Below, piece by piece: positions 9,300-60,109 of a stretch of DNA of 64,000 nt (positions within the stretch are counted from its first letter, which is position 1; each line of letters begins with the position of its first letter). The position numbers and the translations under genes were made by a program. The notes beneath the pieces were generated by a model. It was not told the origin of the DNA and did no database searches. It saw only the letters and a list, made by a program, of their open reading frames with translations. Location: the NCBI GenBank assembly GCA_964016885.1, contig OZ024741.1, forward strand, positions 373,116,001 to 373,180,000, in the 5' to 3' direction. This DNA is from Eledone cirrhosa (lineage: Eukaryota).

Positions 9300-9350
9300 A
9301 GTTTAAGCAAAGAATCGCTGCTTTCACCCTTAACGGGATCTTCTGAAACT
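9300..9350 (-). ncRNA. Type I hammerhead-like motif, CAGAAGA (U4->A) core
   Basis: AGTTT/AAACT stem I, CAGAAGA, T-CCC-GTTAA-GGG-T, GAAA, stem III AGCAG/TTGCT, CUU triplet. Confidence 0.7.
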
Positions 9351-9429
9351 AACAAAGTCAATCTGTGAACGCAGAAGTGAATATTTCAAAAACCGTTGCA
9401 ACCAGAGGAAGACAGGAAGACGATACTTT

Positions 9430-9712
9430 GGTTCGTGGAAACGTTACCTGGCAAAGAACGGGAAAAAACGAAGATAATACGTCATTATTTGGAGCAGTGA
9501 AAAACAATTACACGCAAAGACAAAACCACGTTTATGGTATAAAAGAAGTCGTAGACTAATATTCTATTAGGTGGTTCATAGAGACGTTCTCTGGCAATGA
9601 ACGGAAAAAACGAAGATAATACGTCATATGTGGAGCAGGGAGAACAATTGCACGCAAAGACAAAACCACGTAAATGGTTTAAGTGAAGTCGTAGACTAAA
9701 ATTCTAACTAGG
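9430..9712. repeat. Diverged ~143-bp tandem duplication in the element carrying the 9300 motif
   Basis: GGTTCGTGGAAACGTT...GTCGTAGACTAA at 9430 repeats at 9573. Confidence 0.85.
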
Positions 9713-10087
9713 AAACCGAATGATTTTTGGCTTCCGAGTTAAGAATAAGTAAATAAAATACAGAGGTAATTGAAATTAAATAAATACATACAGGCATCCA
9801 TATACGTACATACACAAGCATATGCGAAAACACTCGCCATAGATATACAAATACACGTACGTATACAAAAAAATACAAAAAACGCACGCACATAAAGTGT
9901 CTTCAGGAAGATGTGGAGATTGATCTGGAGTATCAAGACTAATAAGATGGAGTTACATAACTACTAATAATTAGTCACTATATTGATTTATCATGATCAA
10001 TCAACCTTCTGAAACGATCATAAAACAATGAACTGATTAAGCACTAAATTCAGTTTTGTTTTCATTGTTCAACACACACACATATAC

Positions 10088-10466
10088 TATATTCATTTAT
10101 TATGGCTAAGTGGTGAGCCTTTTTATCCTGATGTTTTACTTGCACACTCACAGGATCATCAGATAAGACTAAATTTTCAATAACAGCAACAGTATAAATA
10201 CAGAAAGACTCTAAAAGTGGGGGAATGGGGGGATAGGTATTTTTGAATCTCCAGTTCTTGCTTTAATTCTGTTTTCTTTGCCTTTCTCTTTTTATAGCTC
10301 CTTTCACATCCATTCAAAAACACCTATCTCCCCCATCTCTCCTTGAATCGTCCCCTATTTATACTGTCTCTATTGTTGAAGATTTAGTCTTGTCTGATGA
10401 CCCTGTGAGTACACAGTTGAAACTCCAGTTACAAGGCTCACCCCTTAGCCATAATAAATGAATATT
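10088..10466. mobile_element. Old PLE-like inverted pseudo-LTR pair
   Basis: 10088-~10245 is a diverged reverse complement of ~10315-10466. Both arms carry CTGATGA cores. Confidence 0.7.
10386..10438 (+). ncRNA. Type I hammerhead
   Basis: Stem I AGTCTTGT/ACAAGGCT, CTGATGA, stem II CTGTG-AGTA-CACAG (two mismatches at base), GAAA, ACT-CC-AGT, GUU triplet, AATAAA downstream. Confidence 0.7.
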
Positions 10467-11756
10467 TAAACTCAGTTTTGGTATTAAAAACTCATTCTTC
10501 TGTCTATCAATAATACATATATATGTATGTATATATAATATATAATTTTCAATGTGATGCAGTCATGGTGCTGCTTTGTATTTTTCAAGAATGTTTTGCT
10601 AATAGATTTCATGTGGTTTATTAATTCAAATGTTTATAGTATCTTTACTAGCAAAGGGATCACTGAAAATTTGCAGTACAAGAATAATTAGTTTTTCATG
10701 TAATGCAGTCATAGTATTGTTTTGTATTTTTCATGTAGTAAACAGTACATTAAGATTTAATTCTTAATGTCCTGTACTGCTTGAAACTACATTAGAAGGA
10801 ATTTCTACACATATTAAGAGAAAAACATCATAGCCTGCAGAGATTGTAATGTAAATAATATTAGGCACGATAAGAACCAATTTAAAAGAGCAAAGAGCAA
10901 TAGATACACTAGCAGGACTTAATTCATGTATCTATCTATTGCTTGCCGGGGATGGTAAGGTTTAGTTGAGGACCATGTTACAAATTCCTCTGTTTTCTTT
11001 TATTTATTTACTTATTATTCTGTTTGTAATAACAAGTATATACCATTTAGGAGATAAAGTGATACAGTTAAAACTATCAAAAACAATTTATTGCACCTAA
11101 TTTGAAAAGATGAAACCTCAGGCGTTCTCTAAATCTAAATGTTAATTTAGTCGCCTGGCAAGTTATTAATACATTACATAGTTTTAGTCTCCACCTGTGG
11201 GTCTGTTGGGTTTTTTTTTTTTACTCAGTTTGATATGTTTAATGTCTAATTGATTTTACATACATTACATACATGGATACATACATACATATACATACAT
11301 ACATATGATGTTGATGATGATACACACACACCACATATATACAAAGAGAGTATCAGAGTTTGAACATGGCGAGAAGAAAAAATAACATCCTTTCACTGAG
11401 AGTATCCTCACAATTTTGTTACTATAATGGGAAGTAAGCAGCTTAGACAATTTTAGCAGCTGACATATTAACAAAGCGCATTCCCAAACATAACATTGTC
11501 TGAAATTGTTTTAAAAGATTTGGTCTAACTCAGGCTTCAAGAGTTTTCTCCCTTGCTTCTCATGATATGAACTCCTCAAAAGGGAGTTTCAGATTGTAAG
11601 ACTATTTCTATGTAAACATATCATGTTGTGTGCTCCTCTCATGCATTTTAGCCTTTACCATCAGCTGACACACATAAGCTGCACATTTTTTTTTTCATTT
11701 TTTCTATATATTTTGATGTATGTTCATCTAGTCAACTTGCTGATTAATATGCTTTG

Positions 11757-11791
11757 CTGAGGAGATCAAATAAGATCGAAACATATCTGTT
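11757..11791 (+). ncRNA. Hammerhead core without recognisable stem I
   Basis: CTGAGGA-GATC-AAATAA-GATC-GAAA-CA-TATC-TG-TT. Confidence 0.45.
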
Positions 11792-11992
11792 GCTTTCACT
11801 GATTTGGTATATTGACAAGGTCCAATCCATCTTTATCATCTAAAATTGTTCCAAATAACTTGAATCAGCTCAAGCAATATGAGTTCTTTTAACTTTTGAA
11901 CTTTTATTTTCCACTTCATATTTTATCTTTATCTCCTTTTCCTTGCTAATCCCCCCTCACTCCTTCTCAGAGTTCCCCCTCCCCCTACTTTC

Positions 11993-57772: not shown

Positions 57773-57824
57773 TATATATATCTACATACACATATATACA
57801 TATGTGTATATGTATGTATATATA

Positions 57825-58502
57825 CTTATAGAAAATGGCATACAGCGGGCTATAAAAATACCTATACAACAACTTAGAACAACCCAAGGAAGAAGAAACC
57901 AAGAACTGGTCATACCATTTATAATGACACACAACCCATGTCACCAGAATATCTTCAACACTGCCAAAGCAAACTTACCGATCATTGCTCAAAGTAATGA
58001 ATTAAAAGGCTTAATCACAGATCGATATTTGACTCTTAGTAAAAGACAGCCAAAAAATTTGAAGCAATTACTAACAAAAGCAAAGTTTGACCTTAACAAC
58101 AAAGACCAATCATTCACTGTATCTAAATGCAATGATAGTCGATGCGGTACATGTCAATCCATACACGCCGGTCAATATATGAAAACAAAAACTGGAAAAA
58201 TATTCCCAAATGCAAATATGAACTGCAAAAGCAAAAATCTAATTTACTGCATTAAATGCCCGAATTGTGAAGAACTATATGTCAGTCAAACTGGAAATGC
58301 ACTATCGGAACGTGCACGGGTACACCGTCAACAAATCAGAGACCCAAATGTCCGTCAGATACCCCTAAGCGGCCACCTGGCAACATGTGGTCAGCTTGGA
58401 ATATTCCCATTCTACAAATTACACAGCCCAAGTGAAATCAAGAGAAAAATCAAAGAAAAGAATTTTATTGATAAATTCAAACCCAAGCTAAATGAACAAT
58501 AA
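57825..58502 (+). CDS. Penelope-like (Neptune-type) element, 5'-truncated: linker zinc finger plus GIY-YIG endonuclease
   Basis: Uninterrupted frame: RQPKNLKQLL, CNDSRCGTC, CKSKNLIYCIKCPNC..LYVSQT...R..VH...H...E..FI..FKPKLN. Confidence 0.9.
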   Translation, partial: LIENGIQRAIKIPIQQLRTTQGRRNQELVIPFIMTHNPCHQNIFNTAKANLPIIAQSNELKGLITDRYLTLSKRQPKNLKQLLTKAKFDLNNKDQSFTVSKCNDSRCGTCQSIHAGQYMKTKTGKIFPNANMNCKSKNLIYCIKCPNCEELYVSQTGNALSERARVHRQQIRDPNVRQIPLSGHLATCGQLGIFPFYKLHSPSEIKRKIKEKNFIDKFKPKLNEQ

Positions 58503-59038
58503 TAACGTTTAGGGGTATTACTTCTACTACCACTATGACCACGACCACTAACAACAACAACAACAACAACAACAATAATAATAATAAAAGTGATGTTGAT
58601 GGTGATGATTAATAGAAAATGCTATTTTCATCATTTCTAAACATAGCAAAACAATTGATGCTTTGGATATGATCATTGGTCGTTAGCATGCTCAACCAGC
58701 CGTGACGCTTAAACCAATCAGCTTTAGTAATTCAGTGAAACTACACACTGATTGGTCGAAATACAGTTTACAGGGCTTAGCATTCTGGAGCCACTTTTCT
58801 CTGTAAAAAATGTATAAAAGGTAGGAAATTTACCCATCTCATTACAGTTGAAAATTGCAAACTCGACTGTCACCACATATTATGAACCTGAAGATTGCGA
58901 AAGCATGAAAGTACTTGTTCAATTAACACTTAGAATTTAATATTCTATCATACTATTTCATTATAATACCATTATATATTTTAAAGGATTGTAAATAAAA
59001 CGAGTAAATCAGACAAAGTTGGAATTCCTCTTATTAAT
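58503..59038 (+). mobile_element. PLE 3' pseudo-LTR
   Basis: CCAATCA / TGATTGG boxes, TATAAAA (~58813), hammerhead, AATAAA, then (TA)n. Confidence 0.8.
58883..58921 (+). ncRNA. Minimal type I hammerhead
   Basis: TGAAC/GTTCA, CTGAAGA, T-TGC-GAAA-GCA-T, GAAA, palindromic AGTACT, CUU triplet. Confidence 0.88.
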
Positions 59039-59112
59039 ATATATATATATGTATATATATATTTATTAAAATAACAGATTAAAGTTTAGTCTTCAAATTT
59101 ATTATTATTACT

Positions 59113-59892
59113 CATCATCATCATCATCATCACCGTTTTACGTCCGTTCTTCCACGCTAGCATGGGTTAGACGGGTTGTCCTGTTGTGGGCAGTGTCTGG
59201 TCGGCTGACCATGCCTTGCTCATACAGGAACTGATCTGGCTTGATTTCTACAGCTGGATGCCCTTCCTAACACCAACCTCATTTACAGTGAGTGCTGGGT
59301 GCTTTTTCGTGGCGCCTACACGTCCACTTTACAGTGTGGGCTGGGTGCTTTTTTGCCGTGGCACCTCCACGACCACCTTGCGGTGGGGGGGGGGGGCATA
59401 TTGTTTATATGCTTCAGCATGTACCCATGGGAGGTCGGGTACCCTGTATTACTGCGTGACGCCAGAAGTCACGGTCGTGTGTCATTGACTTTGAGAGGTG
59501 TAGTTGGGTAAGGTCGGCTTTTATCACCTCATCCCAAGTCATCTTGGGTCTCCCCACTCCGCGGTTTCCATCAACTTCTAGTGCTCTGCACCTTTTTATG
59601 CAGCTGTCATCCTTCATACGCATCACATGTCCATACCAGCGTAACCGCCTCTCCTGCACGCAGCATTTGATTCCTCTTATGCTCAGTCTCTCTCTCAATT
59701 CATTTATGCTTTGTCGTTCACGTATATTACTGTTACACATCCATCGGAGCATGCAGGCTTCGTTTCTCTCTAATCTACGTAAGTCTTCCACCTTCAGCGC
59801 CCAGGTCTCACTACCATGCAACATCGCTGTTCGGATACACGCATCATACAGTCTGCCTTTCATTCTGAGGGAGAAGCCTTTTGCAGCTAGCA
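59113..59892 (-). mobile_element. 5'-truncated RTE LINE
   Basis: [17 protein letters not shown]...RLRWYGHV...GRPKMTW plus UTR. Confidence 0.92.
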
Positions 59893-60061
59893 TATACTAT
59901 ATATATATATATATATATATATATATATATATATATCTGTATATATATATATATATATATATCTGTATATATATATATATATATATATATATATATATAT
60001 ATATATATATATATATATATATATATATATATATATATATAACAAATTTAATATAGAAATG

Positions 60062-60109
60062 GTTTCTACAGGACTAGAACTGTTTCATTCGAAGGAAATC
60101 ATCTGGAAC
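60062..60109 (-). ncRNA. CAGATGA (U4->A) hammerhead-like motif, third family
   Basis: GTTC/GAAAC (bulged), CAGATGA, T-TTC-CTTC-GAA-T, GAAA, ACAG-TTCTAGTC-CTGT, GUA triplet; ~75-bp island inside (TA)n. Confidence 0.65.

Follow-up and report, generated by a model that had tools for sequence, protein, structure and literature searches.

Adenine at hammerhead core position 4 as the family state of two Penelope-like retrotransposon families in Eledone cirrhosa

Introduction

Is a hammerhead motif that has lost the usual U at core position 4 a decayed copy, or can it be the regular state of a whole element family, and might such a motif still cut? This question is raised by a 64,000-nucleotide stretch of the 3.0-Gb genome of Eledone cirrhosa (assembly GCA_964016885.1, contig OZ024741.1, positions 373,116,001 to 373,180,000; hereafter the window), in which (TA)n tracts and retrotransposon remnants are plentiful. 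Five hammerheads, each consisting of CAGAnGA, stem II, GAAA, stem III, a NUH triplet (CUU, GUC or GUA) and stem I, can be drawn there in type I order, at all five positions named in a preliminary description of the window. All five carry A instead of U at position 4 (A4 and U4 hereafter) and sit at the ends of Penelope-like retrotransposons of three families (families 1, 2 and 3). The role of hammerheads in endonuclease-bearing Penelope elements has been stated to be unclear (Craig et al., 2021, PMC8557442). Here we report that families 1 and 2 have A4 as their regular state. Our preferred reading, to which we give a probability of roughly 45%, is that the A4 ribozyme is slowed yet under continued selection, and that cutting would require an RNA dimer or the protein of the element.

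Results

Position 4 in the three families

For family 1, an exact 26-mer matched the genome 21,952 times with A4 and 858 times with another letter (A in 96%). Among the 100 listed of these 858 matches, 80 had T, 12 had G and 8 had C. When the first 20 non-A loci were inspected, all 16 T loci turned out to be head-to-head junctions centred on position 4, which carry A on one strand and U on the other and are therefore read falsely as U4; a U4 subfamily of family 1 is ruled out for these 16 loci. Head-to-head junction at core position 4 is recurrent in family 1, with about 700 places by extrapolation (loci L201-L220). An alignment of 142 copies, 85 of which reach position 4 after ragged ends were trimmed, had A4 in 85 of 85. 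Loci chosen for an identical hammerhead were left out of this alignment, most loci were chosen by an exact tail 24-mer, and about ten of the aligned stretches were widened to include places from the non-A 26-mer search. In contigs of four sequencing runs under other organism labels (three studies), a single contig of which spans the whole family 1 stretch, no non-A letter was listed at position 4; among sequencing runs, no RNA dataset was listed as a carrier.

Family 2 is small, with copies about 80-88% alike, and has A4 in 20 of 22 matches. With stem II left free, about 55 rows carried A (by eye, 100 of 105 rows) and five another letter, two of them U; the strand split of 19:3 in the narrower match set became 59:46 in the wider set, so that the skew was gone.

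Family 3 had been named as a third A4 family. Genome-wide its consensus is U4, with 91 U, 5 A, 3 G and 1 C among the 100 listed of 1,115 matches, and it was rejected as an A4 family. Its A4 copies are scattered over differing tail types and are often found on only one arm of a mirror pair, as predicted for sporadic change; A4 in family 3 is sporadic mutation or junction sequence.

A survey of 1.4 Mb used a descriptor in which only positions 4 and 7 were free, and to which changes elsewhere in the core are invisible; of its 16 clusters and the listed singletons, only families 1 and 2 have a letter other than U as the majority at position 4. Both deviate at the same position and with the same letter. 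A4 is the rule in these two families, and the view that it is more than decay of single copies was borne out by its general presence in both. The motif class as such lies far above chance in the genome: a descriptor with position 4 free, run on 80 position-picked 10-kb stretches (800 kb), gave 53 matches (39 with CT, 8 with CA, all of family 1, 2 with CC and 4 of the U3 type), whereas three shuffled controls gave 5, 1 and 1.

Host elements

The open reading frame (ORF) linked to the family 1 hammerhead lies at a span of 2.4-2.9 kb in loci L243-L246. In L243 (3168-5048, minus strand) the frame is 5'-truncated and encodes 627 amino acids, in which DKT, a reverse transcriptase followed by a C-terminal GIY-YIG-type endonuclease, a CxCX5C linker, CxxC and CxH were recognised by eye; Pfam gave no relevant match to this protein. 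Judged by these motifs, which match the published clade description (PMC8557442), family 1 would end an autonomous Hydra-clade element. Its 3' untranslated region is about 950 nt long, and insertion is into (TA)n, which is likewise the target of families 2 and 3.

For families 2 and 3 no linked ORF was found, and a candidate ORF in L112 belonged to a separate insertion; their assignment to the Hydra clade is suggested by the common tail hairpin and the (TA)n targets. This hairpin, RCTC...GAGY, follows the motif in 68 of 231 family 1, 13 of 68 family 2 and 40 of 119 family 3 copies, compared with 205 of 5,000 random windows. Alignment of the family 2 tail with that of family 3 beats 998 of 1,000 shuffles. 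Plain alignment of the family 1 tail with those of families 2 and 3 was not significant (95 and 641 of 1000 shuffles), so that only the hairpin motif ties it to them. The three families, described before as unrelated, share this hairpin and look like ends of one Penelope clade.

Another Hydra-type family (L112, L120, L158, L287 and L339) encodes a protein about 43% identical to that of family 1, and its long 3' region contains a segment of about 236 bp in duplicate; a simple pattern found no full hammerhead within 1.3 kb of its ORF. In L165 (8749-9682), four tandem 311-bp units, each with a canonical hammerhead, form a retrozyme-like array.

Core, stems and predicted folding

C3-G8, G5, A6, A9, G12-A13-A14, A15.1-U16.1 and H17 are the majority state in all three families, and in 82 family 1 copies each pair of the three helices, in type I order, is possible in 75-100%. 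The usual G-C pair at 10.1-11.1 is nowhere the majority: family 1 has U-U in 81 of 82 copies, family 3 has U-U in 92 of 97, and family 2 has A-U in 40 of 44. Stem I of family 2 is weak, with 2.1-1.1 paired in 8 of 44 copies. Families 1 and 2 have A and U, respectively, at N7, and no second-site change is common to both.

The stem III majority sequence of family 2 is a perfect palindrome, of which the window copy is a decayed form; in families 1 and 3 it is loop III that is self-complementary. The segments are predicted to form self-duplexes of -12.5 to -12.9 kcal/mol, compared with 0 to -3.6 kcal/mol for the hairpins, and stem III is dimer-type and dyad-symmetric in all three families. This does not agree with the truly looped stem III reported at first and leaves the suggestion of a monomeric ribozyme unsupported; of the two earlier guesses, monomeric or attenuated, the latter seems the likelier. 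The proposed covariation in stem II of family 1 also dissolved: CCT/AGG occurs only at 47.8 kb, and the other two of three genome-wide matches (its mirror arm and one more) have a CCC/AGG mismatch. A subfamily of family 3 with U4 (L112(-) 6066, L088, L085 and L097) has A-U in stem I in place of the U-A or U-G of the main family; this swap, which by its sequence appears to be real compensation, was seen in this U4 lineage and in no A4 lineage.

While the pairing of a full hammerhead can be drawn at the five loci of the window, it is the minimum-energy fold of none (z -1.2 to +0.4). As such programs ignore the tertiary core, the non-hammerhead folds are weak evidence. Where the hammerhead fold was itself evaluated, it lay 3.5-3.7 kcal/mol above the minimum. 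In the minimum-energy fold of family 1 at 37 °C, A4 pairs with U11.1 and the GAAA box is buried. In a deep mutational scan all single mutants of the CUGA turn were low, and no pair mutation rescued the turn except the C-G swap (PMC9901934); a per-mutant value for U4A was not found in the eLife supplement. Slow cutting is what one would expect from the weakness of CUGA mutants together with a misfold favoured by A4 and a 3-bp stem II that begins with a U-U mismatch. The A4 motif probably does not cut fast. A fully active variant, in which neighbouring changes, a dimer or a protein compensate A4 and the accepted core consensus is simply too narrow, would agree with the strong conservation of the motif and with the dependence of core-change tolerance on context in natural hammerheads (PMC3884650; PMC3088659). 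We nevertheless hold it to be very unlikely, given the weak stems, the energy gap to the minimum, the lack of rescue in the CUGA turn and the lack of a second-site change common to both families (N7 A versus U, 10.1-11.1 U-U versus A-U).

Constraint on the family 1 motif

At non-CpG sites of family 1, a minor allele of at least 10% was present at 0 of 47 hammerhead positions versus 34 of 257 in the 300 nt upstream (Fisher p=0.004). The motif shows no subfamily-level change where about six were expected; upstream of it the last site to vary is -8, and stem I begins at -5. The 44 copies with 200 nt upstream comprise several upstream haplotypes joined to a single hammerhead sequence, and third codon positions hold 21 of the 34 shared ORF variants (p=0.0006). 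This bias and the several haplotypes together indicate that the subfamilies of family 1 are separate coding lineages.

The absence of the six expected changes is difficult to reconcile with A4 as a dead hitchhiker, i.e. with an A that was present by chance in successful source elements which had no need of cutting and have had too little time for decay. The change of the same position to the same letter in two families also speaks against this explanation, which we consider decidedly unlikely, even though the second defect of family 2 (the 2.1-1.1 mismatch) and the lack of a genomic trace of cutting would fit it. It could further draw on Naiad elements, which spread without canonical hammerheads, and on the proposal by the authors of that work that hammerheads may parasitise these elements (PMC8557442).

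Copy ends and the footprint of cutting

The 5' end lies 0-12 nt before C3 in 41 of 55 copies of family 3 and in 38 of 47 of family 2; in family 1, 11 of 142 copies end exactly at -5, the start of stem I. Such clustering at the 5' edge of stem I is seen, for example, in loci L171-L200, L221-L242 and L287-L358. A TATA-like box was seen by eye about 37-40 nt ahead of C3 in families 2 and 3. The published elements Hydra-2_Amil and Hydra-1_Ajap have a similar TATA-like run ahead of the core (by eye). From this accumulation of 5' ends directly before the core we infer that the transcript starts at stem I, i.e. with the hammerhead; the short mirror stubs would then have been copied from a segment that runs from the start site to the tail.

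Copies that start at the predicted cut site make up at most 2 of the 100 rows listed for family 1 and at most 3 of the 100 listed for family 3, and a genomic footprint of cutting, in the form of a peak, was found neither in A4 family 1 nor in U4 family 3. Since copies run through the predicted cut site, insertions are made from uncut RNA, and slower cutting would therefore cost little or even help.

In mirror insertions (L001, L006, L008, L062, L075 and L180) the arms often differ at single sites and the tail is usually on one arm. These differences could come from two RNA templates or from later mutation.

Motifs and neighbouring features of the window

The A4 motifs and their surrounding copies are listed in Table 1. 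As described before, the mirror arms at 47.8 and 57.5 kb both keep A4, but each has decayed elsewhere. Stem I at these two places is partly junction sequence, and at 60.1 kb it has only three pairs.

Table 1. Family 1, 2 and 3 features in the window.
Feature	Position	Strand	Remarks
Family 1 copy, 5'-truncated	9276..9865	-	3' untranslated region and hammerhead, without long tail, ends in (TA)n; 596 nt aligned, 88% to the ORF-bearing family 1 copy in locus L243
Family 1 type I hammerhead fold	9300..9350	-	A4 at 9344; U10.1-U11.1 mismatch; 3-bp stem II; CUU triplet; predicted cut between 9305 and 9304; sequence equals family 1 majority
Mirror arm, diverged family 1 stub	47762..47835	-	A4 kept; A9 to U; without 5' strand of stem I
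Diverged family 1 hammerhead	47842..47891	+	A4 at 47847; CCT/AGG stem II; outer stem I is junction sequence
Family 1 stub with complete tail including RCTC...GAGY hairpin	49669..49832	-	Hammerhead 49784-49832, A4 at 49827
Family 2 stub, decayed mirror arm	57480..57509	-	A4 kept; A13 to G; left edge approximate; read directly
Family 2 hammerhead	57508..57554	+	A4 at 57516; GUC triplet; stem III is decayed family palindrome
Family 3 hammerhead	60062..60109	-	Minority A4 at 60104; family consensus U4

Canonical CUGAnGA type I hammerheads of other families are present in the window at 7521(-), 9023(+), 36992(+), 50043(+) and 58888(+). No hammerhead family was found among the best 150 of 199 rows of an Rfam scan of the window, these rows being microsatellite or hairpin matches under the gathering score. 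A remnant of a Hydra-type endonuclease lies at about 8528-8776(-), roughly 1 kb upstream of the canonical hammerhead at 7521. A GIY-YIG-like open frame at 57744-58499(+), with a weak Pfam match (E 0.005), precedes the canonical hammerhead at 58888 by about 390 nt and is a separate Penelope-like remnant, unlinked to family 2. Long near-perfect inverted repeats occur at 13249-13354, about 49921-49985 and 56893-56990. The related frames at 33950-34846(-), 35039-35665(+), 53682-54203(+), 59417-59896(-) and 61753-62514(+) presumably resemble C-terminal parts of the reverse transcriptase of long interspersed nuclear elements.

Discussion

One tolerated position has changed and all else in the core is kept, which suggests a slowed ribozyme that is still under selection. 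The tolerance of position 4 has a natural precedent, as a U4C hammerhead is weak in vitro while the viroid that carries it stays infectious (Perreault et al., 2011, PMC3088659). In the mechanism that we propose, the source elements of families 1 and 2 would have carried A at core position 4, and a promoter would start the transcript at about the first base of stem I. Cutting would then take off a capped leader of about 46 nt, while reverse transcription would begin downstream, in the tail. Slower cutting would leave more intact template, so that A4 would be tolerated or favoured, and the need for some cutting would hold the other core bases fixed. A bolder version, which we regard as improbable, sees in A4 a natural variant that works, that emerged on more than one occasion within a single retrotransposon clade and that acts as a slow switch at the transcript start, dependent on dimer or protein, to balance capped intact template against processed RNA. 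If this were true, tens of thousands of such ribozymes per genome would escape CUGA-based searches.

Several observations weigh against a slow ribozyme. The start site is deduced solely from copy ends. Copies of uncut RNA dominate equally in U4 family 3, and the footprint can thus not separate A4 from U4. In family 2, 45 of 63 copies have a C2.1-A1.1 mismatch beside the core, and this second defect would agree with decay. No compensatory change was found within an A4 family. The A4-U11.1 misfold of family 1 is no longer the minimum-energy fold at 15 °C. Finally, the invariant block of family 1 also covers the loops and the tail, in which 1 of 69 sites is variable; as the tail is equally invariant, the constraint is no proof of catalysis, and the block could reflect constraint by a promoter or by protein binding instead.

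The latter point leads to the explanation that the motif no longer cuts and is kept as a promoter or start region, as a protein-binding site or as a self-pairing stem III handle for head-to-head insertions. The extent of the constraint over loops and tail, its beginning at -5 where family 1 copies most often end, and the strong self-pairing of the stem III segments are all in line with such a role, as is the finding that catalytic mutants left insertion unaffected in vitro (Frangieh et al., 2024, PMC11167929). We consider this rather unlikely, because families 1 and 2 have no common stem sequence and yet all other core bases are kept in both. Moreover, in the same in vitro system the core could be removed (5' truncation to +20) with insertion kept, so that protein binding need not protect the core.

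A slow ribozyme and its alternatives can be compared in nature within one clade, which offers a young, abundant, protein-coding A4 family, an old A4 family and U4 families. Cutting by A4 would mean that the core consensus and the descriptors used in searches are too narrow; failure to cut would show, by the example of a large active family, that an element can do without catalysis and retains the sequence for another purpose.

No natural U4A hammerhead was found in the searchable full-text literature, which takes in only a minority of subscription papers and no figures. The available parts of PMC6765202, PMC6962438, PMC13725137, PMC5614642, PMC10085705, PMC11014351 and a 2026 retrozyme preprint hold nothing on A4. 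The idea of a lineage-expanded variant is real for families 1 and 2, but the A4 motif is a variant within the known Penelope hammerheads, departing from the canonical core at position 4, and not a new ribozyme class.

Among the closest known counterparts are the Hydra-clade elements of Craig et al. (2021, PMC8557442), which likewise have a sense-strand type I motif near the 3' end, (TA)n targets, inverted 5'-truncated copies, a one-sided tail and a symmetric stem III, and which share DKT and CxCX5C with the family 1 protein. Like families 1 and 3, 14 of the 26 Hydra rows of their File S2 have, counted by eye, U-U where stem II begins. All 26 Hydra rows, and all 34 rows of that file, read ctga, from which families 1 and 2 differ by A4; family 1 differs further in its 3' untranslated region of the length given above and in a longer stem III segment.

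The minimal and variant hammerheads of Penelope elements described by Cervera and de la Pena (2014, PMC4209133) resemble the present families in their many dispersed, truncated and often opposed copies and in a dimer-type stem III. They had low activity in vitro, and a U3-A8 core variant had expanded to about 1,300 copies. Unlike A4, the U3-A8 change is compensatory; the authors give CUGANGAH as consensus, and the parts of the paper examined contain no A4 family.

The viroid U4C hammerhead (PMC3088659) is likewise a case in which an activity-lowering change of position 4 is kept in nature, and the U10.1-U11.1 mismatch is described there as natural and as the best-tolerated mispair. As far as the text of that paper goes, Figures 5, S6 and S7 aside, U4C is a pyrimidine in a single viroid motif, whereas A4 is a purine in more than 20,000 genomic retrotransposon copies.

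The PAc (Poseidon, Anolis) hammerhead (PMC11167929) needed the protein of its element to cut and was dispensable for insertion in vitro. It lies just upstream of two reverse-transcription start sites, and uncut RNA is the main template, as here; it differs from the A4 motifs in its core, described there as intact, its clade and the overlap of the motif with the start of the ORF.

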